64,000 bases of DNA, from assembly GCA_965209055.1 (NCBI GenBank), contig OZ242374.1:3008001-3072000 (forward strand). The letters are read 5' to 3'. Position 1 is the stretch's first letter. Each line of letters opens with the position of its first letter. Positions 1-13,907 of the stretch are shown in pieces. Below the pieces are notes generated by a model. It did no database searches, was not told the origin of the DNA, and worked only from the letters and a program-made list of their open reading frames with translations. A program made the position numbers and the translations under genes. Source of the stretch: Acidobacteriota bacterium. GTDB lineage: Bacteria > Acidobacteriota > UBA6911 > RPQK01 > JAJDTT01.

Positions 1-2
1 AC

Positions 3-767
3 CTCCATGAGACCGGGAAGTCTCCTGCATATGTTCGAGTCTGCATTTCCGGTCTCCGGTTTCGGGAAAAGGCACTGGGAAGACGAGACCCTAAAGGCAT
101 GGAGACCGGTATGGCCCTGGATATCTCCCGCAGGAAGGGCAGAGGCAGAGGGAAGGGACAGGCACCCCACCTCACTAAAGACCAGATTCAGAAAATTGGC
201 GAGGTAGCGGTGTTGTCCGGGAGTCTCTGGGGCCTGAGAGACCGGGCCGTCATCTCCACCATGTTCGCGGCCGGTCTGAGAGTCTCTGAGGCTTGCGAGT
301 TGGAGGTGAGAGACCTGGAATGCCTCGAAGACGGGAGCGGCCTGCTCACAGTTCGATTCTCGAAGACGGATTCAGAGGGTAAGGGATTCACCATGGGTCT
401 GTCTCCCGGACCGGTCCGGCATCTTTGCGAATGGATAGAACGAGCTAGTCTCAGGGACCGGGATCCCCTATTCCCGGCGATTCATTCCAAGGGTGTGGAC
501 AATTTCCAAACCCGGATTGTCAGATACAAGGCATCAACCAAGACCATGGCCCGGATCGTCTCAACTCGTGCTGAGGCTGCCGGGTTTCCCGGTGTGACAA
601 GTCATTCCATGCGGCGGTCGTTTGCCGCTCATTTGAGTTTACAGGGTCTCCGAACTCATCAAATCCAAGAGGCGGGTAGGTGGACTTCACCTAATATGGT
701 GCTCCAGTACACACAAGGGGCCCGGGCCACTCGGTCCAAAGTCGTGGCGGCCATGGCATGGGAGTAG
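3..767 (+). CDS. Cre-like tyrosine recombinase/integrase, 5'-truncated by window edge
   Basis: The frame of ORF 99..767 is open back to base 3 (LHETGKSPAYVRVCISGLRF...). Catalytic set present: GLRVSE (R), FSKTD (K), SHSMRR (HxxR), GRW (Trp as in Cre), VLQY (Y). Confidence 0.9.
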   Translation, partial: LHETGKSPAYVRVCISGLRFREKALGRRDPKGMETGMALDISRRKGRGRGKGQAPHLTKDQIQKIGEVAVLSGSLWGLRDRAVISTMFAAGLRVSEACELEVRDLECLEDGSGLLTVRFSKTDSEGKGFTMGLSPGPVRHLCEWIERASLRDRDPLFPAIHSKGVDNFQTRIVRYKASTKTMARIVSTRAEAAGFPGVTSHSMRRSFAAHLSLQGLRTHQIQEAGRWTSPNMVLQYTQGARATRSKVVAAMAWE

Positions 768-878
768 GCGGCCCCACCTTCGCGGTTCACTGAGAGTGAT
801 GAGCTGTCCCGGCCTGCTTTGAAGCGGTGAGACGGACGTACAATAAAGGTGCCACTTTAATCACGAAGGGAGGAGACA

Positions 879-1130
879 ATGGAACTGATACCGCAGGAAT
901 CAACGCGTGAGGATGTGCAGGATGCCTACAAAAGAGGTTTCCGGTCCGGTAACGAGTTAGGTCACCGAAAAGGGAAAACAGAAGGCTATCAGAGGGGCTT
1001 GAAGACAAAGGAACTACGGGAAGCCTTTGATAAGGGCCATGAGCTCGGAGAGGCGGAAGGCCACGCCATGGGTTTTACCAAGGGCTGGAACGCAAGAGGG
1101 AGAGAAAGAAATGAAGTTGATGCCGAATGA
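879..1130 (+). CDS. Hypothetical protein with GxxxG repeats
   Basis: Strong RBS GGAGG upstream of ATG 879; GFRSG-NELG-HRKG-KTEG periodicity. Confidence 0.6.
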   Translation: MELIPQESTREDVQDAYKRGFRSGNELGHRKGKTEGYQRGLKTKELREAFDKGHELGEAEGHAMGFTKGWNARGRERNEVDAE

Positions 1131-1434
1131 CACGGAGCCGAAAATTCTTTTCTTTTATCTGAGCCTTGCCGCGAATGTGGAGCGTGCGGAGAAGAATCCC
1201 GGTATGCTCCCGGAAGTCAGTGAGCAGTGGAGAAGGGGAGTGGACGCTCTGCCACGGATGCACGAAGACGCCCCCGATTTGTGGCGATTACTCCAACAGG
1301 GTAAGGATACTCCCGAAGTTCGGGAGAGAATGAGGGCTGTTAGTCGGCGCCAACCGTCCGAACGGACAGATGCGGAGCAGGCATTTTTCCTATGGGTGAC
1401 AATCGCCCTTATGGTGCCTGTCACGGTCCATTAG
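1111..1434 (+). CDS. Hypothetical protein
   Basis: ATG 1111 (or 1120) in ORF 1027..1434, overlapping the end of the previous gene and stopping just before the convergent portal stop. Confidence 0.5.
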   Translation: MKLMPNDTEPKILFFYLSLAANVERAEKNPGMLPEVSEQWRRGVDALPRMHEDAPDLWRLLQQGKDTPEVRERMRAVSRRQPSERTDAEQAFFLWVTIALMVPVTVH

Positions 1435-1594
1435 TGGCCTACACCCCGGCCAGACGTTCTGCATCCGCCGCAGACCATCCCTTGTCCCGCAAACGGGCGG
1501 CCATGGCCAGCCGTTGATTGAGCGGGACCAACCTTGCCAACACTGGCGAGGTGTCCAACATCACCGGACGTTCCAGCACCCTAGCGGTCTCGTC

Positions 1595-1722
1595 TTGGAG
1601 GGTGCGGACCCAACCGCCGCATGTCGTCGCTACCCAACTCCGCAAGGCGTCCGGCCTTGTCGTCGTGGAGTTTGGACCAAGACCCACTAAGGCACGGGGA
1701 ATCCCTAGAGACTCGCTCAGGT
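1595..1722 (+). repeat. 128-bp target-site duplication, left copy
   Basis: TTGGAGGGTGCGG...CTCGCTCAGGT, identical to 3628-3755 and abutting the IS end. Confidence 0.95.
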
Positions 1723-3627
1723 CCTGACTTCGACGGTTTTGAACCGTAAGTTATTGATTTAATTATGCAAGTGTTCTCAGAGTACACTACAGAGCTAGGA
1801 AATGGAGAGCGGGGCGGGGTTCAACTCTGGGGACGATTTGGCGACAACAGCAGGGTCGTGGTCCGGCGGAGGGTGAGGCCGACCGTCTTGTAGAGCAAGC
1901 GCTGCTCCCGGGTGGAGCCGAAGGGGACCAGGTAGCGGTTGCCGTTGCCCTGATCGCGGATCAGCGAGACGGTCACGTTGCCGAGTTCCGCCAGGATTCG
2001 GTCCTCGCTCAGCGACGGCTGGCCGGCATGCTGCCGGGCGTACTTCCAGCGCAGGATGCGCAACAGCGCGAAAGCGACGTAACAGAGGGCGACGTGGGCG
2101 CGAACCCGGCGCTCAGTCCAGTGAAAGACCGGGCGTACCCGGAGCGTGTGTTTGAGCACCCGGAAGCCCTGCTCGATCCTCCACAACTCGGCATAATGCG
2201 CCCGGATCTGTGAGGCGGGGGGTTCGCCCAGGCTGGTCCAGACCCCGTGCAGTCCATCAAAGAGAGCATCGCGTTCGATCGCCTGGCGGTTGAGCGTGAC
2301 CGCATGGCGTTTCAGCTTCAGGAACCGTCCCGGGCGCCGCCCGAGCGGTTCTCCCTTCGCGATCTTCTCTTCGGCCTTCTTCACCGCCTGCTCTCGGGCT
2401 CGGGCGTCCCGGCGCGCCTTGCTCGGACAGTACCGCACCACCAGCCGGCGACCGTTGACTTGCCGTTCGGTCAGACGCCTCAGACGTCCCTTCCGGTCCA
2501 GCGGCTGTGGAGTCCACTCCTGCGGAGAGCCCAGGGCAGCGAAGTCGGCCCGCTTGAGCTGCCGGAGCCGTGCCGCGACCACCCAGTCCAACCCCGCCTT
2601 TGTCAGCGCCCGCAGGTTCTTGTCGCTCAGCAACCCGGCGTCGGCCACCACCACCGCCCGTCCAACTTCGAACTGCTCTCGCAACTCCTGAAGCATCGGC
2701 AACAGCGTCTTGACCTCCGTCGTGTTCCCCGGGAACAAGCGATACCCGACCGGCAACCCTTCCGTCGTCTGCATCAACGCCAGCACCACTTGCGAGCGAT
2801 ACGGTTTCCCGTCCTTGCTGTATCCCTTGCGTCGCAAATCGTCTTCCACTTCGGTCGCGAAGGAGAGCGTCGTCGTGTCCAGGAACACGACTTGCACCGG
2901 CCCTCCCAACAAGCCCCGGACGGTTCCGTCCAAATGCTTCAGCAATCGGCTCTGCCGCTGACGATTCAGGCGATCCATCATCCGGTAGACCCGCTCCAGG
3001 GGGAGGTTCACCCCCTGCTCGGACAACTCCGCCGCCAGGTGGCGCTTGCTTTTGCCGGGCGCAGCCAGGCGCGCCAGCATCAACTGCCGGAACACCCGCT
3101 CGGACCCCCGTTGATTCCGGGGCCAGAGGCGAGCCAGACCGAGATCGTCGTAGAGTTGGCCGAAGACCTCGTGAAAGCCCAGCTTCAGATCCTTTTCTCC
3201 CTGGAGCTTCCGGGCGTCGGCAATCGGGATCGGCCCCAAAGCCTTCCGCTCCCGCCGCGCGGCCACCGCCTGCTCGGCCAGATACGCCGGCGGGAACAGC
3301 GCGGGCTGCCGTTGCTCCAGCAGGCGCACCTTCTCGTACTCGGCGACCCGGAGGAGTTCCTCAAGTGCGGGCCCCTCGGGAGCGGAACCCATGGAGCGGA
3401 TCAGGCGCTGGCGGGGTTGACGGTGTTCGTTGCGGTAAGACTCGACAATTTGGACGACGACATTGGGCGTGTGTCGGCGGCGAATCTGTCGCACAAACAT
3501 GGGGAAAGTCTAACAGAACAATAAGATAATATCAATATTCCAGGTACACTACAGACGGGCCCAAAACTCAACCTCAATGGGCTCAAACGTTTCCGAGCCT
3601 CAGCGCCGATAATTTGTCGAAGTCAGG
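1723..3627 (-). mobile_element. IS1634-family insertion sequence, 1905 bp
   Basis: 12-bp terminal inverted repeats CCTGACTTCGAC (1723) / GTCGAAGTCAGG (ends 3627), single transposase, flanked by the 128-bp direct repeat. Confidence 0.92.
1821..3500 (-). CDS. IS1634-family DDE transposase
   Basis: Motifs QIVESYR, FLDTTTLSF, GYSKDGK, VVADAG, LWRIEQGFRVLK, RPVFHWTERRVRAHVALC. Confidence 0.95.
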   Translation of the reverse strand: MFVRQIRRRHTPNVVVQIVESYRNEHRQPRQRLIRSMGSAPEGPALEELLRVAEYEKVRLLEQRQPALFPPAYLAEQAVAARRERKALGPIPIADARKLQGEKDLKLGFHEVFGQLYDDLGLARLWPRNQRGSERVFRQLMLARLAAPGKSKRHLAAELSEQGVNLPLERVYRMMDRLNRQRQSRLLKHLDGTVRGLLGGPVQVVFLDTTTLSFATEVEDDLRRKGYSKDGKPYRSQVVLALMQTTEGLPVGYRLFPGNTTEVKTLLPMLQELREQFEVGRAVVVADAGLLSDKNLRALTKAGLDWVVAARLRQLKRADFAALGSPQEWTPQPLDRKGRLRRLTERQVNGRRLVVRYCPSKARRDARAREQAVKKAEEKIAKGEPLGRRPGRFLKLKRHAVTLNRQAIERDALFDGLHGVWTSLGEPPASQIRAHYAELWRIEQGFRVLKHTLRVRPVFHWTERRVRAHVALCYVAFALLRILRWKYARQHAGQPSLSEDRILAELGNVTVSLIRDQGNGNRYLVPFGSTREQRLLYKTVGLTLRRTTTLLLSPNRPQS

Positions 3628-3755
3628 TTGGAGGGTGCGGACCCAACCGCCGCATGTCGTCGCTACCCAACTCCGCAAGGCGTCCGGCCTTGTCGTCGTG
3701 GAGTTTGGACCAAGACCCACTAAGGCACGGGGAATCCCTAGAGACTCGCTCAGGT
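3628..3755 (+). repeat. 128-bp target-site duplication, right copy
   Basis: Identical to 1595-1722. Confidence 0.95.
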
Positions 3756-4490
3756 CTCCCGACAGGGCCGCGTGAGACTTCATGAGTTGGTCCAGGTCAT
3801 TGGGTGCGAGTCTCACGGGCAGAGGGTAAGGCCCTGAACCGTCCATTGCCGAACGTCCGGCCAGAGGGAGGAATGAGATACCTCCGGCCAGTTCCCGGAG
3901 TTTCTGAGCCTTTTCTCTCAGGCCCTCTGGATTGTCATTCCAGGTTGCATGAATCGCAGTTCCACGGGGGGAGCCCGCGTCTAGTTCAATGGCCAAATCG
4001 ACCACGGCCAGTTGACGGGAGGCAATGCCGCAGTCTCTCCAATTCTCCCCCCGCCACGGTAGGGTCCGGGAGGGACGAATCACGGCATGGACGACTTGCT
4101 CAGGCCGGACGTTACGGTGAACCTCCGAGCGGTCAGGCCCTTCCACCGTGAGGGTCTTGTAGCGGAGCATTGAGGCGGTCCCGGTCAGTTCGTAGTCCAC
4201 CACGGGCCGCAGGGTCAGGCTATCGTCCAGGAATAGGACGGCCTCCCCTTCCTCAATGATGCAATTCGCTATCCAGGGCCAGAGCCCGGAAAAGACGGGG
4301 TCATAGTCAGAGGCCGCTAGAACGCCCTCCAAGCGTCTGGCACAAGCCATAAGGACGGCGGGCCTATACCCCCATGAAAAGACCGCGGAATGGACGGGGA
4401 GACCTGCCAGGGCCGCTATGAGAGGGTCTCCATAACCTGCCAGGCTGCGGTGTTCCTCTGCCCGTGGAGGCGGTTCCAGGTTCAGACTGA

Positions 4491-4991
4491 TTAGAGCCAC
4501 GAGGGAACCTCCCGGACTCTCTCAGTCGGTCTATGCCGTTTCGCAACCTGGACCGAGGAATCCGAATAGGCCGGACGGTCCACAATGCCGAGACCGGAGA
4601 GTCTCGCCCGTTGGATGGTCCGCAGAGTGCCGGACCACGTTTCCCGCGTAGCCTGGAACTCAAGCGAGAGACCCCGCAAGACGCCGGACTCTACAAGGGC
4701 CAGCGTATCGTCTGCGTCCCTTGTCTGCGGGAGTTCGGCGCGAATCTCCAACTGAGTGGCACTGTCCCTCAGTTCGAGGCCGCCCCCGCCGGATCTGGCG
4801 AGAGGCCGGGACCGTTGGTGCTGGACGTTCAGGATAACGTCCAGGGAGGAAACATCACCAAACGCCCCAGGCTGGAACCGCTCCCGGAAGTCAGGGAAGA
4901 TTCGGGCCTCCGAACCGTAGACAATGGCGACGCCGGAAAGGGTCCGCCCTTCCCGGCGCAGCTCCACAAATCGCCGTTCCAGGGTCTTCAC
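4491..4991 (-). CDS. HK97-family phage prohead protease
   Basis: LSGVAIVYG, ERFQPGAF, NVQH, GLSLEF, IVDRPAYSDS motifs typical of the HK97 prohead protease. Confidence 0.92.
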   Translation of the reverse strand: MKTLERRFVELRREGRTLSGVAIVYGSEARIFPDFRERFQPGAFGDVSSLDVILNVQHQRSRPLARSGGGGLELRDSATQLEIRAELPQTRDADDTLALVESGVLRGLSLEFQATRETWSGTLRTIQRARLSGLGIVDRPAYSDSSVQVAKRHRPTERVREVPSWL

Positions 4992-5000
4992 GGTGGACCC

Positions 5001-6206
5001 TTAGCTGGCCAGCTTGAACCGGAGGCGGCCAAATCCGTCGGCCCGTAGAACCTTGAGGTTCCAAAGGGCGACGGCGGTCAGCACGACTTGGCCGGTCTTG
5101 GCCTTTGTGATGCGGTCTGGAATGAGGGTGACTCCCCGCCATACCGGAAAGACCGCGTGAGTGGCATTGATCCGACGGGCCGCTACTGCGCCCTGGATAT
5201 GGGCCGCCGTCTTCTCCGGGACGTGAGAAGACACCCTCACGCCTCCACTCTTGCGGGTGAGGGTCTCATAGGCACTTTCGTTTGTGCCTCCGGCGGATTC
5301 CGTGGTCCGGTACACGGACTCAGTGTGAGAGTAGGTCTGACTTCCGAGCACCATCCGGACCTGATCGGTCATGGAGGCAAAGTGGCCGTCCACTTGATCG
5401 GTCAGGGACTTCTTATAGGCCGTCCAGTCCGCTACGGCGGTGGGAGCGGTGGGAGCGGTCAGACCTCCCCCTAGCAGACCCTCTGCGGTGTCGGTCAATA
5501 GCAGTTCATCAAACTTGCTACTGAGGGCCATTCTGAGGTTATCCCTCAATGCGTTTTCCAGTCCGGCAAGGCCATACTCGTCTTCCAGGTTCCAGTAGAA
5601 AGACGCTTGCGCCCGTTTCCGGTCCAACACACTGGCCGTAAATGCGCCCGTGGTCTCCGTGGCCGCCGCACCCTTGGCCGGAGTTCGAACCGTGGCACCG
5701 GTGGTCAGGACCGTATAGGTCTGGTCTCCCACTCCCACCGTCGGCATGGAGACTCCCAAAAAGTCTATGAGGCCGTCGGGGAAGATTTGCGGAATAATCG
5801 GGTGCTGCATCTGACCGACGTCGGAAGGTGCGGGAGTCACTGCCCGTTCCTCACCTCTCAACTGCTCAATGGCGATTTGATTTGAGGCGAGACCGAAATG
5901 GGTCTGCAACTCGGCCTCCGCTCCCTCCGTCGCCCGTTGATTGAGGGCCGCCCCTAGCACGTTACCCACAGAGGCGCGACTGACAAGGCGGTCTAGCTCC
6001 CTCTGCTCGGCATCAATCACGGTGACTTGAGGTGCTGGATTCTCTCGAACCGCGTCCCGGTATTCGGTCTCAATCTGAGGCAGTCTTTCCCGGAGTTCGG
6101 TGAGTTCGGTATTCTCGGCCTCCGTCCGGTCTCCCTTGCGTTCCAACTCGTTCATACGAGTACGCTTTTCAGAGAGTCTCACTTGCAGACGTTGAAGTTT
6201 AGTCAC
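5001..6206 (-). CDS. HK97-fold major capsid protein with N-terminal coiled-coil delta domain
   Basis: GTG 6206 with AGGGGGA RBS; ~100-aa coiled-coil N-terminus; LENALRDNLRMALSSKFDELLL backbone helix; C-terminal GQVVLTAVALWNLKVLRADGF. Confidence 0.85.
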   Translation of the reverse strand: MTKLQRLQVRLSEKRTRMNELERKGDRTEAENTELTELRERLPQIETEYRDAVRENPAPQVTVIDAEQRELDRLVSRASVGNVLGAALNQRATEGAEAELQTHFGLASNQIAIEQLRGEERAVTPAPSDVGQMQHPIIPQIFPDGLIDFLGVSMPTVGVGDQTYTVLTTGATVRTPAKGAAATETTGAFTASVLDRKRAQASFYWNLEDEYGLAGLENALRDNLRMALSSKFDELLLTDTAEGLLGGGLTAPTAPTAVADWTAYKKSLTDQVDGHFASMTDQVRMVLGSQTYSHTESVYRTTESAGGTNESAYETLTRKSGGVRVSSHVPEKTAAHIQGAVAARRINATHAVFPVWRGVTLIPDRITKAKTGQVVLTAVALWNLKVLRADGFGRLRFKLAS

Positions 6207-6207
6207 T

Positions 6208-6528
6208 TTAGTTTCCCCCTGTATACAGGTTTTCAAGATATGCGGCCCACTGCCGCCGAACCGGCGGGACTTTATTCATGCGTTCCCGCCGGTGGACTTC
6301 CAAATGACAATCGACACAGAGCAAAAGCACGTTATCCAGGCTATGCCGTCCACCCTCACTCAACGGCCTTACATGGTGGAGTTCACAACGGCGGGAACCT
6401 AGACGTGAGGTGCGGCCGGCGGTGATTCTGTGGCCGCACTTCTCGCACTTGAACCGTGCGCGATTGACCAAGACCCACCGGCGCAAGCGGTGCTGATCTG
6501 GCCCTACTTGTCTGTGCCATTCGCTCAT
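6208..6528 (-). CDS. HNH endonuclease (packaging-associated type)
   Basis: CEKCG...ELHHVRPLSEGG...NVLLLCVDCH. Confidence 0.92.
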   Translation of the reverse strand: MSEWHRQVGPDQHRLRRWVLVNRARFKCEKCGHRITAGRTSRLGSRRCELHHVRPLSEGGRHSLDNVLLLCVDCHLEVHRRERMNKVPPVRRQWAAYLENLYTGGN

Positions 6529-6537
6529 TCTGAGTCC

Positions 6538-6569
6538 ATAATATTGGATAAGGTGTTGCAATTGCAACA
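6538..6569 (-). promoter_or_regulatory. Putative head-operon promoter overlapped by a perfect 16-bp palindrome
   Basis: TGTTGCAATTGCAACA at 6554-6569; minus-strand TTGCAA-N18-TATTAT ending ~10 nt before the HNH ATG. Confidence 0.5.
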
Positions 6570-6582
6570 ATCACAACCGAAA

Positions 6583-6924
6583 ATGTTGGATATGCAGCAG
6601 TCGATAGGCCATCAAGTCCATTACGACGCGCCCGTAATGAGGCGCGCCAGTTCCTCCCAATGCTCATACCGAACGCTATGGCGCAAGGTGCTATGGTCCG
6701 CAGTCAGGGACTATCACGGGCTGGAAATGACTAGCCTTGTCAAAAACCTCCACGCCTCCCCGGTCCAGATCCAGGCAGACGCTAGGGCATGGGTCCACTC
6801 TGAGGAGACCGGACCCGCCACGTTCGAATGGGTAGCGGAGTTGCTCGGATTCTCCCCGGACGCTCTGCGCCAAGCTATTGACCGAATGGATAAAAGATCC
6901 ATAAACAGAAGGTTTAGGCCGTGA
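6583..6924 (+). CDS. Prophage-type hypothetical protein, possible regulator
   Basis: LWRKVLWSAVRD...DARAW...TFEWVAELLGFSPDALR pattern resembles small prophage proteins with a C-terminal HTH-like segment. Confidence 0.65.
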   Translation: MLDMQQSIGHQVHYDAPVMRRASSSQCSYRTLWRKVLWSAVRDYHGLEMTSLVKNLHASPVQIQADARAWVHSEETGPATFEWVAELLGFSPDALRQAIDRMDKRSINRRFRP

Positions 6925-7053
6925 ACAGGTCACTAAGTATGCACCTATCAGGGATTAACCATGCATTAGTGGGCTGCCCGAGGCCCCTATATGCAAGTTT
7001 CCAAACCGGCTTGCTCCCCAAGTCTTAGTTATAGCAACGTAAACGGCTGATTT

Positions 7054-8544
7054 ATGAACTGGAAGTACGAAACATTAATAACTCTGAGGCCGTTCCAACA
7101 TGAGTTCATAAAATATGCACTTATGCCGGGAATCCATACGGCGGCCTTGTCACTGCCGAAAGGGAACGGCAAGAGCACTCTGGCCGCGTTTCTGGCCTTG
7201 CAGACCCTTCTCCCGGAGTCTCCGCTATTCGTCCGGGGAGCGGAAAATCATATCGTGAGTAGTTCGGTGGGCCAGTCCCGCCGTAGCACGTTCGGAATAC
7301 TCCGGCGGATGTTGGCGCAGGTTCCGAACTGGGGAAGGGACTACCGGGTGACGGATAACGCAACCTCCGCAAGAATCGTCCACCCTCAGAGTCTCACTGA
7401 GGTCTCGGTACTCCCGGCCAACTCAAAAGCGGCGCAGGGCATCGTCCATGCGCGTCTGGTCATTGCAGACGAGCCCGGAGCCTGGAAGGTGGGCGACGGG
7501 GAAGAGATGCACGACACCCTACAGGCCACGGTAGGGAAACCGGGAGTGAACCTCCGTTTGCTCTACATTGGCACCCTTGCTCCGGCGGGCCGGGGTCATT
7601 GGTGGCCGGAGTTGATAGAGGATGGAGGCGACGGCCTCACCCACGTCACCTTTTACGGGGGAACGCCGGAGGAAGTAGCGGAGCGGTGGGATACGTGGCC
7701 TTTGATCCGCCGGAGCAATCCGTTGATGAGTCACTTCCCGGAGTCCCGGCGGGTGCTACTCGCAGAGCGGGACAAGGCCCGGAGGGATTCGAGGTTGCAG
7801 GCCCGATTTTGCAGCTATCGCTTGAACTGCCCTTCTCGGGACCGCTCGGAGATGGTGTTGACCGTGGCGGACTTCGAGAGGGCCTCAAATCGCACTCTGC
7901 CAGTCCGGGACGGTGCTCCCGTCGTCGGTCTCGATTTGGGCCAGGGGAGGGCCTGGTCTTCTGCCGTCGCCCTCTGGCCCTCTGGCCGTTGTGAGGCCGT
8001 GGCCGTCGCTCCCGGCCTCCCGTCAATCGAGGCGCAAGAGCGGAGGGACCGCGTACCGAAAGGCACCTACCGGAGACTGATAGAGGTGGGGTCTCTGACC
8101 GTCGCAGAGGGCCTGAGAGTGCCTCCCGTGGCCTCCATCATGCGGCAGATCCGGGAATGGCAGCCACGGGTGATCCTCTGCGACAGGTTCCGGTATGGGG
8201 AGGTTTTGGACTCAAACCCGCCCTGTCTGGTAGTTCCACGGGTGTCCCGGTGGTCTTCCAGCACGGAAGACATTACCCACCTCCGCAGAATGGCCGCAGA
8301 CGGGCCCTTGTCGATAGCGGTGGGGAGCCGTCACCTACTGGCCGCCTCTCTGAGTGCGGCCAAAGTCATCACCGACGACGCCGGGAACGTGAGACTGAGC
8401 AAGTCAAAGGAAAACACGGCAAGGGACGACGTGGCGGCAAGCCTGATTCTATCGGCGGGGGAATGGGGGAGGCGGTATGCAGGCGAGACTCAAGAACCGG
8501 TTTTTGTATTCGCCCCTTCTAACGGTCCCGTCGCGGTGATGTAA
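7054..8544 (+). CDS. Terminase large subunit
   Basis: LRPFQ adenine-binding motif, Walker A PKGNGKST, Walker B VIADE, nuclease motifs VGLDLG and RDDVAAS. Confidence 0.9.
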   Translation: MNWKYETLITLRPFQHEFIKYALMPGIHTAALSLPKGNGKSTLAAFLALQTLLPESPLFVRGAENHIVSSSVGQSRRSTFGILRRMLAQVPNWGRDYRVTDNATSARIVHPQSLTEVSVLPANSKAAQGIVHARLVIADEPGAWKVGDGEEMHDTLQATVGKPGVNLRLLYIGTLAPAGRGHWWPELIEDGGDGLTHVTFYGGTPEEVAERWDTWPLIRRSNPLMSHFPESRRVLLAERDKARRDSRLQARFCSYRLNCPSRDRSEMVLTVADFERASNRTLPVRDGAPVVGLDLGQGRAWSSAVALWPSGRCEAVAVAPGLPSIEAQERRDRVPKGTYRRLIEVGSLTVAEGLRVPPVASIMRQIREWQPRVILCDRFRYGEVLDSNPPCLVVPRVSRWSSSTEDITHLRRMAADGPLSIAVGSRHLLAASLSAAKVITDDAGNVRLSKSKENTARDDVAASLILSAGEWGRRYAGETQEPVFVFAPSNGPVAVM

Positions 8545-8790
8545 AACCTACCTCCCGGCGGGTCTTTTCGTTTCGCTTGGCCTGTAAAATGGCATGACCC
8601 AAAACGCAGGTTACAGCGAACACTCCGAGGCGGTACAAAAAGTAAGTCAGACCTACCAACGCGGCCAACAAAATCAGTAATTCCACCTCACGGCCTTCCT
8701 TTTGAAGTGAGCGGGAAAATCCACTTTCTCTCAGGTCTCAAAACTCCCCCTCTCAGACTCTCCCATTTTCTACCAAGACGGCCAGAATAG

Positions 8791-8824
8791 GGTGACTATC
8801 TGTGTTGGCTCAGGTAACACCAAA
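8791..8824 (-). other. Candidate ColE2-type replication origin
   Basis: Immediately downstream of the rep stop, minus strand reads ...GAGCCAACACAGATAGTCACC. ColE2-type origins lie right after rep and contain CAGATA. Confidence 0.3.
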
Positions 8825-9847
8825 TCACGCGTACTGATTCAGGCGTGATTTGTAGTGCCACGGGAAAGGCCCCGGACGGTGAAAGATACGGTGAACCGCA
8901 CGGCCAGACAGGCCCCAACCATTCGCCACTTCCCGCATTGAAAAACCTAACGCCACTGCTACAGAAATTGCGTGGTCCCTGTCTTCGGTTCGCTGCCTCC
9001 GCTTGTCCGCTCCGATTCTCGCCCTTGTCCGTTGCCGCCGAATCCAGGCCGGGCAATGCCAGTTTCTGGCCGCCCACGCTTGGCGGTATTCCGTCACTTT
9101 TTTCACCGTGGCCCGGACTTCACTTGCAGGGAGTCTCCCCCGGCCCTCTTTCTCGAAGACTTGATTGCGAGTCTCTGCGGCCACGGCCACGTCGATACCC
9201 CGGTTTTCCTTACGTCCGGCCCAACGCATCAACTCTTGGAACATATCCACGTTCCGGCCAATTCCGGTTCGGACTTTGCACGGCATCTTCCAGCCAAAGG
9301 GAATCACCTCTGCGAGCTCCTCCAGGGAGTAACCGCCCTTGTGTTTCCAATGGGTAACGGTGGACCTATCGGCCCAATGCATAGGGTTTCGGGTGAGGAA
9401 TCCGCTGTATCCAGGGTCCGCCGAGGTCTGGCCGTGGTAGTACGAATCGACCCGTTTCAAGAGTTGTAGCGGTTTCGGTCTGGCCTCCGGGTAACGGTGG
9501 ACTGGTTTTCTCAGGGTCCATACGGCATGACAGTGGCCGTTGGCCTTGTTTTGGACAATCCAGGACGGTTCCCGGACTCTCGGCCAGACGATGGCCTCCC
9601 ACATGGCTTGTTCGTCGTCGCAGTCGAGAATCAGGCCGACGTAGGTATTAGCGGCATGGAGTTGTAGAAACGGGTGCCTCCATGCATTGGCCGGGGGGAC
9701 GTGGATCCGAGATTTGAAGTCTCTGCGCCGGGATGCGCCGCGCCCGACGTATCCGCAAACCTTGGGGCGGATATGAGCATCACTCAGGCCGTGGAGCCTC
9801 ACCTTCGGCGGGGCGTCTTCAATGGGGAGTCTTGCCGGTACAGGCAT
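8825..9847 (-). CDS. repA: ColE2/pAL5000-type replicase (primase-like Rep + PriCT + C-terminal HTH)
   Basis: LDCD, NKANGHCHAVWTL, DPGYSGFLTRNP, YSLEEL, GIGRN motifs; C-terminal SMREVANGWGLSGRAVHRI HTH. Confidence 0.88.
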   Translation of the reverse strand: MPVPARLPIEDAPPKVRLHGLSDAHIRPKVCGYVGRGASRRRDFKSRIHVPPANAWRHPFLQLHAANTYVGLILDCDDEQAMWEAIVWPRVREPSWIVQNKANGHCHAVWTLRKPVHRYPEARPKPLQLLKRVDSYYHGQTSADPGYSGFLTRNPMHWADRSTVTHWKHKGGYSLEELAEVIPFGWKMPCKVRTGIGRNVDMFQELMRWAGRKENRGIDVAVAAETRNQVFEKEGRGRLPASEVRATVKKVTEYRQAWAARNWHCPAWIRRQRTRARIGADKRRQRTEDRDHAISVAVALGFSMREVANGWGLSGRAVHRIFHRPGPFPWHYKSRLNQYA

Positions 9848-9940
9848 GGTTCCCTTCGATACGGAAATACTCGGTCACGTCAATTCTTCCTTTTCACCCC
9901 TCGCTCTCAGTCGCCAAACATCCGAGCCGGGGTGGGTCTA

Positions 9941-10309
9941 CTACTTCCCGGCAGGAATCAACGTGGAGGAGTCCATTCTCGCCAGCTTCAAGAGTTCCAC
10001 CCGATCCGCCGCCGGATGGGGATAGTTGTCGTCTCCACTGGTCCGGTGACTCAGGACGTACTCGGTCACCAAGGCCCGAATCACCCGGTTCAACGACACT
10101 CCGTTAAACTGGCTGGCCCAGCGGAGCATCTCTTTTTCGTCCGCAGTGAAGCGGACGCAAAATGTCTTCGGCTTGCCCCGAGCCGGGACCAAGAATGTCC
10201 CCTCGGGCCCAATCACTATAGTGGCCTGGACTTTGCCGTTGCGGTCCATGGGGATTTCTCCCATCACCCGCGCCCCTGCAAACTCATCACCTCTTTGCAG
10301 TTTCTTCAT
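9941..10309 (-). CDS. Ribbon-helix-helix DNA-binding protein
   Basis: ATG 10309 with GGAGGA RBS; KTFCVRFTADEKEMLRWASQFNGVSLNRVIRALV is an RHH signature. Confidence 0.7.
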   Translation of the reverse strand: MKKLQRGDEFAGARVMGEIPMDRNGKVQATIVIGPEGTFLVPARGKPKTFCVRFTADEKEMLRWASQFNGVSLNRVIRALVTEYVLSHRTSGDDNYPHPAADRVELLKLARMDSSTLIPAGK

Positions 10310-10332
10310 TTTCGGGTCCTCCAAATGAAAAT

Positions 10333-10356
10333 TGATATCACTGGAAATGATATCAC
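10333..10356. promoter_or_regulatory. Putative operator: two TGATATCAC boxes
   Basis: Palindromic TGATATCA at 10333 and 10348, just upstream of the RHH gene. Confidence 0.55.
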
Positions 10357-10472
10357 GAATGGAAGGGGAGAGTCCAAACCCTAGACGCACGAGTGGGCGG
10401 GGTGTCGGGAATCCATGACGGACGGCAAATTTGTCAGATCCTCGTTCTATAATCCCCGGTTTTCTGGAGAGA

Positions 10473-10715
10473 ATGATGGAAATGGAATTGGAGCAGAGGC
10501 TAGACGAGATCGAACGGAAGATTGAAGCAGATACGGTCCTCCTAATTGGACTATTTGATCTTGCTTGTACCCCTATAGAGGAACGGAACAGGGAGGGGCA
10601 ACTCGCCTTCATCGCCGATAAGCTCGGTCTTCGATACGAGGGACTGGCTCCGACCAAACGCTACTTGGAGGAGATTGGGAACACATTGCGCGAACTTCAA
10701 AACTACGGAAATTGA
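10473..10715 (+). CDS. Hypothetical protein
   Basis: TATAAT at 10448, GGAGA RBS, ATG 10473/10476; stops 1-3 nt before the tRNA 3' end. Confidence 0.55.
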   Translation: MMEMELEQRLDEIERKIEADTVLLIGLFDLACTPIEERNREGQLAFIADKLGLRYEGLAPTKRYLEEIGNTLRELQNYGN

Positions 10716-10718
10716 GGG

Positions 10719-10802
10719 TCCCCGGCGTGGGACTCGAACCCACACGACCTCTCGGCCACCAGATTTTAAGTCTAGCGCGTCCGCCAATTCTGCCAACCGG
10801 GG
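10719..10802 (-). tRNA. tRNA-Leu(TAA)
   Basis: Minus strand CCCCGGT-TGGCAGAATTGGCGGACGC-GCTAGA CT TAA AA TCTGG, long variable arm, GTGGG TTCGAGT CCCAC-GCCGGGG-A. Confidence 0.95.
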
Positions 10803-10896
10803 ACATTCCCAATACTGATCCAAACTGCGAGTTCCGTACAGGCCAGCAGTCCGGCACAGAGACGGGAACGGTTATCGGTAGCCGCCGAAAGGGGGG

Positions 10897-11262
10897 GTGA
10901 TGAACCTCGTAATCTGTGGATTGATTTATGACGCAATGGGGGTGTCTCTCTTGGGTCTGTCGTTCATCAAAAAGCCAAAAACGATCCGCGATGAAGTTGG
11001 AACGTATTGGAATCTGAACGAGAAGTTGCTCCTGGGGAATGTGAAAAAAGACTTGGATGGAGCAGTCGGAACCTCGATTCTTCTCCTCGGATTTATTTTC
11101 CAAACAATCGGCCAATTTTGTTTCCGGGCCGGGCCGTGGCCCTGGGTGCTTCTTCTTCTTCTTTTTCTCTTCGTCTGTACGTATGCCTCAATGGTACGTG
11201 GCGTCTGGATCCGATACAGAATCAAAAGCGTCAAGCGGACACTGGAAGAATCTGAAGTTTGA
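10897..11262 (+). CDS. Small AT-rich membrane protein (about 3 TM segments)
   Basis: Three hydrophobic stretches; composition much more AT-rich than the backbone. Confidence 0.65.
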   Translation: MMNLVICGLIYDAMGVSLLGLSFIKKPKTIRDEVGTYWNLNEKLLLGNVKKDLDGAVGTSILLLGFIFQTIGQFCFRAGPWPWVLLLLLFLFVCTYASMVRGVWIRYRIKSVKRTLEESEV

Positions 11263-11325
11263 CCACGAGTCGTTCGAGCCGATTCCGCTAGGCGGGGACA
11301 AAGTTGACGCGGGAATCAGGGCGCA

Positions 11326-12366
11326 CTATAAGGAAGGCACTGTTTTCAGACGGGGTCTATCCCAAAAATCCCGTTTCTTCCAGTTGCGGTGCTCTCCAAG
11401 TTGGAAACCCTGATCGGAGTTGACGACGATGATGGTTTCAGTCAGGCGTCCGGCCTGTTCCAGGACCGAAAGCAACCTTCCGACCTCCCGGTCCACGGCC
11501 CGGATCATGCCGTAGTAAGTTCCCCGGGCGAGCCCGATCTCTTCCCGGCTCAGGTGGGGAGCGCCGCTGTAGACATGGATATTCTCCCGCTCGTAACGGG
11601 GCTTTCCCCGGGTCTCCCCGGGTGTCGGAAAAGGCAGATCGATTCGGCTGGGATCGACGAACCAGGAGGGCGTGGTGGAGCAGGCGACGTGCGGCGCGTG
11701 GAAGGAGACGCGCAGGAAGAAGGGCTCCGGCGATCGAACCAGTTCCCGCAGGCGGCCGAGCGCCAGGTTTCCCAGCCGGGCCGTGCGGATCTGGCCGGGA
11801 GGAATGTCGAGCAGGCCCCCGATCATCCATTGATGGGTCTGGGTTCGAACCACCGACAGGAGGCGGCGGCGCCACTCGGAGGGCAGGTGCGGGGTGGGCC
11901 GTCCCCGGTTGTCGAGATACCGGGGAGGGTCGCCCAAGAGACGCCAATCCTCCCGGAAGGCGTGGGCCTTGCCCACGTTCTCGGGGGTGATGCCGGCTTC
12001 GGTCCAGGCCTTGAGGAGGTTCGGGGTTTCGTTCCGTGACCGGGTCCGGTAGCGTCCCGGCTTCGAAGCCGGCTTTCCCATGGCCATGACGCCGGTCTGG
12101 TGCGCGTAGAGACCGGTCTTCATCGAGGTCCGCGATGGGACGCAGACCGGATTCTGGACGATGGCCGTCTCGAAGCGGACCCCCTCGCGGGCGATACGGT
12201 CCATGTGCGGCGTATCGGCCCAGGGCCGGCCGTAGCAGCTCAGCGTATCCGCCCGCCCGTCGTCCAGCATGATCCAGAGGACGCTGGGCGGGGAGGTTGA
12301 GGCCGCGGCGGCGGTTCCACTTCCGGCGAGCAGAAGGAGATAAACGGAGAGGCCGTATCGGGTCAC
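11326..12366 (-). pseudogene. Secreted sulfatase, C-terminally truncated
   Basis: GTG 12366 overlaps the upstream TGA; signal peptide, LDD, CVPSR, FHAPH, SDQG..LGEH..WKK. Similarity stops at ~11357 and the C-terminal part seen in the neighbouring sulfatase is missing. Confidence 0.75.
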
Positions 12367-13907
12367 GGAAACTTCGGCTGTCCGCCTCTCCGCTGGGACC
12401 AGGGCTGGTTCAGATCCATCGCCACGGGATCCTCCACTTCCTTCTGGCGAACCCGAAGCCGGGCCCACATTTCCCGAACCTGGTCCTGGTAGTCCGGAAG
12501 AAAATAGAGGTTCCGCATCTCCTTGGGGTCGCGGCCCAGGTGGTAGAGCTCCCCGTCGCCGGCGGAGCTCACCGTGAGCTTCCAACCCTCGGGCGTGACC
12601 AGGGTCCGGTGCTGGTAGACGTGCCGCCGGTTCCAGGGATGGCTGAAACCCTGTTCGTCGCTGACGACCAGGATGTCCCGGTCGGGGAACTCCCGTCCCG
12701 AGCGCAGGTCAGCGGCCCAGCTCTCTCCCTGCAGGTGCTCGGGCAGCGGCTGCCCCATCAGGTCCAGCAGGGTCGGTGTCACATCCACCTGGCTCACGGG
12801 CTTCCCGACGCGCCGGGAGCGGTCCCACAATCCCGGAACCGAAAGCAGGAACGGTACCTTCGCCGCCTCCTCGTAGCTGTTCATCTTGGACATGAGGCGG
12901 TGGTCGCCCAGCATCTCGCCGTGCTCGCTGGTGAAGACGACGATGGTGTTCTCCTCCAGCCCCAATTCCCGAAGCCGGTCCAGCACGCGGCCCACCATTT
13001 CGTCCACCAGGGTGACCAGGCCCCAGTAGCGGGCCATGGCGTCCCTCAGCTCCTCGACGGTCTGGGGATAGGCGATGGGAAGCTCGCCCCGGATCAACGC
13101 CAGCCGCATCTGCCGCTTGGCGAAGGATACGGTGGGGTCCATCGGTTGGAAAAAGGAATCGGGGATCGGCATGTCGGCCGGGTCGTAAAGGTCCCCGTAG
13201 ACGTTGGTGAAGGGCGGCCCCTGCTTGTGATCGGCGAAGGCGTGGGGCGCCAGGAAGCTCAGATAGAGGACGAAGGGCCGGTCCTTGTGCTGCTCCAGGA
13301 ACCGGATCCCCCGCCGGGCCAGGTAGACCGGCTTGGAGAGTTCCTTGGGCAGGCGGTTGGCCAGGTCGCGGGAATGGCCGTAGGGCTCGTCCGCCTCGAT
13401 CCCCTTCCCCTTCAGGAAGTGGTAGTAGCCGGAGCGCTGGGAATGATCCTGATCCTCGGACCACCATCTTTGATAGATCTCGGTGCTGTCGAAGTCGGTG
13501 AAGCCCCGCTGCTTGAAGATCTCGTTTCCCAGGTGCCACTTGCCGTAGTAGGCGGAGGCGTACTCGGGGTGCTGCAGCATTTCCACCAGGATCGGCACCT
13601 TGGGATCGAGGGGGAGGTTGTTTTTCCATGAGCCGTGCTTATGAGGGTAGAGCCCGGTGAGCAGGCTGGCCCGGGAGGGAGTGCAGACCGGGGCGGACAC
13701 GTAGAAGGAGTCGAAGACGAAGCTTCGCCGGGCCAGTCGGTCCAGGTGGGGCGTCCGGATCTGCTTGTTGCCGTAGACGCCCAGCGTGTCGACCCGCTGT
13801 TGGTCGGTCAGGAATACGATCAGGTTCGGCGGCTTCTCTTCAGCTTCCGCAAAGGGAGAGCCATGGAGAAGGGCCGCGGCCAGGAGAGTTAGGATCCAGC
13901 GTTGCAT
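12363..13907 (-). CDS. Secreted sulfatase (arylsulfatase/choline-sulfatase-like)
   Basis: Signal peptide, PNLIVFLTDQQR, CTPSRASLLTG, GKWHLG, SEHGEMLGDH. Confidence 0.95.
   Translation of the reverse strand: MQRWILTLLAAALLHGSPFAEAEEKPPNLIVFLTDQQRVDTLGVYGNKQIRTPHLDRLARRSFVFDSFYVSAPVCTPSRASLLTGLYPHKHGSWKNNLPLDPKVPILVEMLQHPEYASAYYGKWHLGNEIFKQRGFTDFDSTEIYQRWWSEDQDHSQRSGYYHFLKGKGIEADEPYGHSRDLANRLPKELSKPVYLARRGIRFLEQHKDRPFVLYLSFLAPHAFADHKQGPPFTNVYGDLYDPADMPIPDSFFQPMDPTVSFAKRQMRLALIRGELPIAYPQTVEELRDAMARYWGLVTLVDEMVGRVLDRLRELGLEENTIVVFTSEHGEMLGDHRLMSKMNSYEEAAKVPFLLSVPGLWDRSRRVGKPVSQVDVTPTLLDLMGQPLPEHLQGESWAADLRSGREFPDRDILVVSDEQGFSHPWNRRHVYQHRTLVTPEGWKLTVSSAGDGELYHLGRDPKEMRNLYFLPDYQDQVREMWARLRVRQKEVEDPVAMDLNQPWSQRRGGQPKFP

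Follow-up and report, generated by a model that had tools for sequence, protein, structure and literature searches.

The 64,000-nucleotide stretch analysed here (the window: positions 3,008,001-3,072,000 of contig OZ242374.1, assembly GCA_965209055.1, a single-contig genome of 6.08 Mb from an Acidobacteriota bacterium) opens inside an integrated island that encodes an HK97-type capsid protein, its maturation protease, a portal and a large terminase subunit (TerL), and in which no tail gene could be recognised. We propose that this island is a capsid-forming, tail-stealing satellite, similar in its working to the cf-PICIs (phage-inducible chromosomal islands of the capsid-forming type) and belonging to a separate, smaller lineage, and we put the probability of this reading at roughly 0.6. 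We favour it because the same compact module recurs in related loci, the sizes of these elements are narrow, their borders are precise, distant members carry satellite-like arms and tail genes are missing. The satellite way of life is inferred from the genes, by analogy with cf-PICIs.

Borders and gene content of the island

The borders could be solved because genomes of the same genus carry the empty site (five of five). In these genomes the alignment of the flanking DNA extends as far as about window -277 and resumes at 11366, the two stretches being contiguous there, so that a sulfatase open reading frame (ORF) runs uninterrupted across the insertion point (519 aa in L020). Set by this comparison, the island spans window -279 to 11365 with an 8-bp repeat at both ends, and its insertion accounts for the split sulfatase gene of the host genome. 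It measures 11,653 bp, or 9,620 bp in its native form, once an insertion sequence (IS) and a 129-bp duplication are removed. The first-pass annotation had drawn the element from 1 to 10716, had estimated its size at about 8.7 kb without IS and duplication and had taken a tRNA-Leu gene as its border; all three had to be revised, and the tRNA gene lies inside the inserted DNA. Direct BLAST for att repeats gave nothing longer than 11 nt.

The empty site also exists in the public sequencing data. The empty-site joint, skipping 11,653 nt with 8 letters ambiguous, turns up in contigs from four public runs. For the three runs of the island-bearing sample, the empty-site form has a depth of 5, 7 and 16, compared with 13, 15 and 37 for the island; in some runs, not all, the depth of the flanks equals that of both forms summed. 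The island is polymorphic or excising within the population.

The borders of the island and its head, packaging, recombination and replication genes are the following (window coordinates):

-287 to -280: attL core AAATCCCG; island DNA starts at -279
219 nt left of the window (genome 3007781) to 767, plus strand: tyrosine recombinase, Cre/Xer type, 328 aa (PF00589, 1.4e-18)
1442 to 1723, minus strand: portal gene, 3' piece (1594 to 1442, the last 51 codons and the stop; 1595-1723, the second repeat copy)
about 1724-3627, minus strand: insertion sequence of about 1,904 bp with terminal inverted repeats
1821-3500, minus strand: IS transposase, DDE_Tnp_1, 559 aa (PF01609, 2.5e-18)
4500 to 3628, minus strand: portal gene, 5' part, 291 native codons (profile A2; homologues with PF04860)
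4991 to 4491, minus strand: prohead serine protease, S78, HK97 type (PF04586, 1.1e-22; TIGR01543, 3.3e-14)
6236 to 5001, minus strand: major capsid protein, HK97 fold, 411 aa (homologues with PF05065; AlphaFold2 and Foldseek)
6570 to 6208, minus strand: HNH endonuclease, first gene of the head operon (PF01844, 2e-10; phrog_1271, 6e-12)
6637 to 6924, plus strand: small four-helix protein directly upstream of TerL, by position a candidate small terminase or regulator
7054-8544, plus strand: TerL, divergent from the head operon (phrog_9, 3.5e-42)
9847 to 8825, minus strand: Rep, plasmid-type replication initiator/primase (PF03090, Replicase family, 1.2e-20)
11366-11373: attR core AAATCCCG; homology to the five empty-site genomes restarts at 11366

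Genes were called from an ORF listing together with Pfam, PHROG and NCBIfam scans. The minus-strand operon is transcribed in the order HNH, capsid, protease, portal. The first-pass annotation had already named this capsid-protease-portal order with its HNH gene, and Pfam, homologues, structure prediction and a portal profile all agree with it. It had also placed TerL opposite the head operon and recognised a Cre-like recombinase and a plasmid-type Rep, which our searches confirm: the recombinase matches a XerC-like structure (4A8E) at 9.6e-10 and Cre at 1.9e-7 over query residues 62-314, and Rep matches PF03090 as listed.

The capsid ORF itself stays under the Pfam threshold, and its homologues at 33-48% identity carry PF05065. 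Its AlphaFold2 model (mean predicted local distance difference test, pLDDT, 82.5) carries at its N-terminus a helical, delta-like domain about 120 aa long. Foldseek matched this model to 339 Protein Data Bank (PDB) chains at E<=1e-3, and all among those listed are HK97-fold shells, including HK97 and the gene transfer agent of Rhodobacter capsulatus (RcGTA, 6TB9). By fold and family-level similarity the 411-aa ORF is thus an HK97-fold major capsid protein (PF05065). A capsid profile (A1) gave 0 matches when compared with PDB sequences. Capsid homologues are numerous (510 among 8,000 scored candidates), many of them with PF05065 and many on contigs of 7-13 kb, and one that is 91% identical (P0001) is encoded on a 12.8-kb contig. 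A profile that takes in the 305-aa portal ORF (A2) matches the RcGTA portal (6TE8/6TBA) at 1.2e-5. The reverse assignment, in which the portal would be the 411-aa ORF and the capsid the 305-aa ORF, was overturned by the Pfam matches of the homologues.

The small protein encoded at 6637-6924 is kept at the same position in two same-genus relatives, L010 and L015, and is conserved only in the subtype of elements in which TerL is inverted. Its family, which is large and unnamed, has 1440 representatives at E<=1e-3, and its AlphaFold2 model has four helices (pLDDT 87). A terminase family was assigned to 0 of 72 members of this family and Foldseek gave no match at E<=1e-3; the best VIA Z, 5.4, is uninformative for a helical protein and came with no fold match.

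The same scans gave no family match in the island for tail, lysis, connector or small terminase (TerS) genes or for a regulator of the AlpA, MerR or Stl type (Pfam, PHROG, NCBIfam), and none for a partition gene (Pfam, NCBIfam). When phmmer was run with the connector and small proteins of related elements, it found nothing: neither the pre-portal small protein nor the head-completion protein of L010 has a homologue in the island. The earlier observation that tail, lysis, connector and recognisable TerS genes are missing therefore holds in all three scans. Tail, lysis or connector genes just left of the window would have turned the island into part of an ordinary prophage. The 12 ORFs scanned over 12 kb on that side include none and nothing else phage-like; they comprise genes of the host, a pair resembling a toxin-antitoxin system and a second insertion, separate and 2.8 kb long, that has a recombinase of its own. 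All genes of the island other than the portal are full length compared with their homologues, and only about 2.5 kb of DNA is left over after the head, packaging, recombinase and Rep genes.

The portal gene is interrupted by the IS, which has four 100% identical copies in the genome and lies here between exact 129-bp direct repeats of portal sequence (window 1595-1723 and 3628-3756). The 5' open frame continues 14 codons into the IS, to 3583, which gives the 305-aa ORF (3583-4500). The 3' piece is in frame with the 5' piece and is 60% identical to the C-terminus of the portal homologue of L010. In independent short-read contigs, unitigs break at the repeat edges, as the duplication predicts. 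A contig with an IS-free portal is not listed among them, and contigs cannot prove its absence. Recombination of the 129-bp repeats would allow precise loss of the IS. Of the other three copies of the same IS, one is flanked by a target duplication only about 7 bp long, and no duplication is seen at the other two.

A family of compact relatives

The island is a member of a widespread and barely described family, whose elements share its module and measure about 9.3-10 kb. We compared 50 related loci, 40 from species-representative genomes and 10 from viral contigs (four come from the same two genomes as L010-L015). TerL, capsid and portal lie within 8 kb in 38 of them. A TerL-HNH-capsid-protease-portal module is colinear on one strand in 33, and TerL is inverted as in the window in 2. 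The records of the genome loci are titled Acidobacteriota, Vicinamibacterales, Bryobacterales, Syntrophobacterales, Thermodesulfobacteriota, Chloroflexota/Dehalococcoidia, Binatia and Alpha- and Gammaproteobacteria, and those of the closest loci Acidobacteriota. Full-length TerL homologues with 40-56% identity are found in elements of two same-genus genomes, several in one of them. Each of these loci also has a recombinase, HNH, capsid and portal, and most have the protease. A scan of metagenome contigs with a capsid alignment (A8) confirmed none.

Several relatives are discrete units. Empty sites delimit precise inserts of 9,893 bp (L014) and 9,301 bp (L013), whose short direct repeats differ in sequence. 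Three contigs of 9,849, 9,509 and 10,220 bp end in exact terminal overlaps of 55, 99 and 127 bp and encode the whole module. The first-pass annotation had proposed looking for its gene set in independent genomes. This set does recur as far as the head and packaging module goes, in compact, bounded elements, but not in combination with a ColE2-type Rep, which none of the 50 loci carries.

Outside the genus, a P4-type integrase lies beside the module in 7 of 8 fully scanned chromosomal loci. Four of these seven also have AlpA, and some loci have an AAA_25 helicase or an HTH_36 protein. P4-type integrase and AlpA in these distant members reproduce the published layout of satellite left arms. The recombinase of the window element is instead of the Cre/Xer type, as in its same-genus relatives. 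Among the ORFs of related loci (230 scanned with Pfam, 76 with PHROG), families for tail tube, tape measure, sheath, baseplate or fibre did not appear; the same scans revealed neck or connector families, namely PF05521, phrog_25, phrog_5 and PF23961.

Individual relatives depart from this pattern in their own ways. L055, the 9,849-bp contig with the 55-bp overlap, has no integrase by Pfam, and its contig name states a coverage of 1463. L023, a same-genus element, has the permuted order integrase-capsid-protease-portal-TerL-HNH. An alphaproteobacterial metagenome-assembled genome (L034) carries two complete TerL-HNH-capsid-portal modules in tandem within 13 kb. L015/L068, from one same-genus genome (about 17-36 kb), is a decayed representative of the TerL-inverted subtype in which pieces of TerL lie about 12.5 kb apart with a homologue of the PF03090 Rep between them; here an element carrying Rep may have inserted into a satellite.

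The satellite reading and its rivals

How would such a satellite work? Upon induction, the Cre/Xer-like recombinase would excise the element and Rep would prime its replication. TerL and HNH, perhaps with the small protein encoded upstream of TerL, would then cut and package unit-length DNA. In HK97-like phages, an HNH gene beside TerL goes with cos-type packaging, and the adjoining HNH and TerL genes suggest, by analogy, the same HK97-type cos packaging here. The DNA would enter small capsids through the element's own portal; both the capsid protein of the shell and the protease that matures it would be the element's as well. A helper phage would supply the tails and probably the neck proteins, as in cf-PICIs. 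A packaging role of HNH is mentioned in the satellite survey literature. A study of mini HK97 genomes (Aguilar et al. 2026, PMC13669383) projects a genome of about 10 kb for T=4 HK97-type shells, and a genome of 9.3-10 kb fits this projection.

In gene content and published description, the element resembles cf-PICIs such as EcCIEDL933. Both are integrative islands that encode their own capsid, protease, portal, HNH and TerL and lack tail and lysis genes, and distant members of the family share the integrase, AlpA, replication arms and neck or connector proteins. The window element itself has a recombinase (PF00589, with Cre- and XerC-like matches and an insertion at an 8-bp core), a replication module and the full set of capsid, protease and portal, the last split by the IS. 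HNH and TerL are present for packaging; the 6637-6924 protein, a TerS candidate by position, matches no terminase family or fold. Neither a lysis gene nor a complete tail module was detected, whether in the island itself or among the 12 ORFs scanned over the 12 kb on its left side. There are also differences. The family has the module order TerL-HNH-capsid-protease-portal. The window copy combines a Cre/Xer-like recombinase with a tRNA gene and a Rep whose family, PF03090, differs from the described primase-replicase profiles, and no AlpA, TerS, adaptor or connector was recognised in it. The hosts of the family are Acidobacteriota and other phyla, whereas SatelliteFinder found cf-PICIs in Proteobacteria and Firmicutes.

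A number of observations weigh against the satellite reading. cf-PICIs are defined with a size of 10-18 kb, and the elements of this family, at 9.3-10 kb, fall narrowly short of it: 9,620 bp for the native island (11,653 bp with the IS), 9,301 bp for L013 and 9,893 bp for L014. The island shows no recognisable head-tail adaptor or connector, and neither a TerS nor AlpA or another regulator could be recognised in it. A helper is not apparent in the host, whose genome has no match to PF04860, PF10145, PF05065, PF03237, PF03354 or PF04984 that would reveal a resident prophage. In contigs, the only material consulted, the depth of the island equals that of its flanks and is not raised; the circular-junction (attP) joint is not listed, and contigs cannot prove its absence. 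The empty-site form could be strain variation and not excision. Because the IS splits the portal, the window copy is probably defective and unable to form capsids unless the 129-bp repeats recombine, and it may still excise. Two relatives hint at lysis functions: L028 has a weak endolysin match (phrog_291, 7.4e-4) and L044 a glucosaminidase downstream. Finally, in five free or contig-borne relatives protease and portal are separated by an ORF of 600-890 aa without any Pfam or PHROG family (L055:7688-9772, L028:3470-5272, L074:3685-5934, L075:3263-5563 and L079:5092-7764), which could be a tail or adsorption protein and make those relatives autonomous.

This large ORF is at the heart of a different explanation, in which the family consists of autonomous minimal viruses or self-transmitting transfer agents that combine head, portal and an unrecognised adsorption or ejection protein, need no helper, and are represented in the window by a provirus inactivated by the IS. 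The three terminal-overlap contigs with the whole module, one of them named with a coverage of 1463, would suit free virus genomes, as would the missing resident prophage. A survey (PMC13669383) also reports hundreds of putatively complete HK97 genomes smaller than 11.6 kb. However, the large ORF is absent from the window element and its same-genus acidobacterial relatives, and only about 2.5 kb of the window element is unassigned. In addition, the neck and connector proteins of relatives imply attachment of a tail, and P4-type integrase with AlpA forms a satellite-like arm. We regard an autonomous virus as unlikely for the family as a whole, and it may hold for the free relatives with the large ORF. 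A gene transfer agent proper is a poor match as well. RcGTA shares the small HK97-type head, provides the best solved match of the portal profile and has its capsid among the fold matches. Its cluster includes tail genes and does not excise, and the DNA that it packages is taken at random from the host. The window element, in contrast, combines a recombinase with precise borders and is also known in an empty-site form, and no tail genes were found in it.

Could the head module instead be the passenger of a plasmid? A mini phage-plasmid or integrative plasmid would be maintained by the PF03090 Rep and use its head for occasional transfer. Rep does belong to a plasmid replicase family (33 homologues, the best 51% identical, some also with the PriCT_1 domain, PF08708), and the recombinase matches Cre; Cre/Xer-type recombinases also serve plasmids and phage-plasmids such as P1. 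Yet Rep is missing from all 50 related loci by tblastn. It occurs in 5 of 401 Acidobacteriota genomes searched, including the source genome, and nowhere else adjoins a complete head module: in three of the four other genomes its homologues lie away from head genes, and in the fourth (G005) only a TerL fragment is found, about 2 kb off. Relatives of Rep were absent from the viral contig collection, and none was confirmed in metagenome contigs with a Rep alignment (A7). PICI-type satellites, too, carry replication genes that are active only after induction. Of the features of a phage-plasmid, the island thus has Rep alone; it has no partition or tail match and sits integrated at the depth of its flanks, with no circular joint listed. 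The first-pass annotation had left a choice between a satellite and a mini phage-plasmid existing both integrated and as a plasmid. The discrete, tail-less head and packaging element stands, but its plasmid state finds no support beyond the Rep family, and we consider a plasmid improbable. The Rep gene contains an exact direct repeat of 14 nt (window 9352-9365 and 9489-9502, 137 nt apart).

The last explanation, that the island is a decayed prophage remnant or a chance chimera without a life of its own, seems to us more improbable still. The broken portal would fit such a remnant, as would the lack of a recognised connector or TerS, the Rep module that is unique to the window copy among the related loci, and the state of its same-genus relatives L015 and L010, which are degraded or without protease. 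The precise borders, the core repeat and the empty-site form in the same sample speak against it, as do the full-length genes other than the portal. Moreover, the same compact module and size across phyla and in terminal-overlap contigs would not arise from independent decay. A decayed chimera is thus unlikely for the family, and the window copy is damaged and mosaic.

Other small satellites resemble the capsid-forming satellite proposed here in part. P4 redirects the capsid protein of its helper to T=4 and has no capsid, portal or terminase gene itself. P4 and P4-like satellites are also small (about 10-12 kb) and integrative, and distant members of the family have a P4-type integrase and AlpA; the window element has neither. 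PICMIs (minimalist islands of the phage-inducible chromosomal type) and classical PICIs are small, integrative and helper-dependent as well, without capsid, portal or TerL of their own. Among the metagenomic 'twilight-zone' mini HK97 genomes (5-11.6 kb, putatively complete, some thought to be satellites), the group characterised in PMC13669383 has no portal, terminase or tail genes, unlike the present family with its portal, TerL, HNH and protease.

Capsid-forming satellites have so far been catalogued only in Proteobacteria and Firmicutes, and a full-text literature search brought up no paper about phage satellites with capsid genes in Acidobacteriota. If our reading is correct, tail piracy would extend to little-studied environmental phyla through a compact, size-constrained, self-packaging and tail-less family. 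The lower size limit of HK97 packaging systems would drop below 11.6 kb, and a minimal set of capsid, portal and terminase would become available for structural and assembly work. More speculatively, and with considerable doubt, we envision a family of 9-10 kb head-only replicons in several phyla, found as precise chromosomal inserts and as free contigs with terminal overlaps, that build and pack HK97 capsids of their own; in size they would lie below every tailed phage or satellite isolated so far (11.6 kb). These might take tails from foreign phages across wide host ranges, or in some cases live autonomously by means of the 600-890-aa protein. The acidobacterial lineage would have gained a tRNA-Leu(UAA), and this copy a plasmid Rep.

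The tRNA gene, remaining DNA and surroundings

The remaining features of the island and the interrupted host gene are these (window coordinates unless marked L001):

768 to 1441, no strand: unassigned spacer of about 670 bp from recombinase stop to portal stop; ORFs 879-1130 (plus), 1027-1434 (plus), 1155-1424 (minus) and 787-1008 (minus), none supported
9941 to 10657, minus strand: 238-codon open frame, no family (Atlas best score 0.83)
10716-10803, minus strand: tRNA-Leu(UAA) (ARAGORN; Rfam RF00005, 42.8 bits)
10804 to 11373, no strand: right arm of the island including the attR core, no supported gene
11326 to 12585, minus strand: host sulfatase gene, N-terminal part (PF00884, 6.4e-30; tblastn with paralogue)
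L001 19292-19711: host sulfatase gene, C-terminal part

The tRNA-Leu is cargo of the island. It had been a candidate attachment site and was rejected as such: no tRNA repeat exists near the recombinase, and the gene lies within the inserted DNA, with another 560 bp of island beyond it. Its sequence differs from the host-type copies and shares with the tRNA-Leu(UAA) found inside the borders of L014, and with one in L012, an acceptor stem unlike the host type. TTA and TTG make up 23.7% of the leucine codons of the element (56/236), compared with 12.9% in 652 long host ORFs. The tRNA may thus support the TTA/TTG-richer genes of the island, which is a modest rationale. For the source genome, the island explains one of six tRNA-Leu(UAA) genes, in addition to the split sulfatase. 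The six lie at G000:C1 477237, 1381642, 1991443, 2104898, 2524782 and 3018716, and four of them are near-identical and of the host type. A tyrosine recombinase lies at most 9 kb from 4 of the 5 copies outside the island, in a genome with 64 tyrosine-recombinase loci (tblastn); tRNA-Leu genes look like an integration hot spot.

The 238-codon frame is probably not a conserved gene. It has no homologue, does not resemble a 240-aa ORF of L014 and is not conserved beside Rep homologues. The spacer at the other end of the island has no significant Pfam, PHROG or NCBIfam match and no conservation with L010 or L015. The first-pass annotation had the portal followed directly by a convergent gene; the recombinase is indeed convergent, but this spacer separates the two stops.

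Two further features lie in the left flank. Directly left of the split sulfatase fragment is the second insertion, of about 2.8 kb (L001 16448-19244, window -3553 to -756), which is missing from the five relatives and encodes a 433-aa tyrosine recombinase (PF00589, 1e-25) and two unassigned ORFs of 255 and 87 aa. The other is a gene pair at L001 9805-10442, amid DUF1501 and PSCyt2/PSD1 genes, which encodes a NikA-like ribbon-helix-helix (RHH) protein and a PIN-domain protein and is likely a toxin-antitoxin system.

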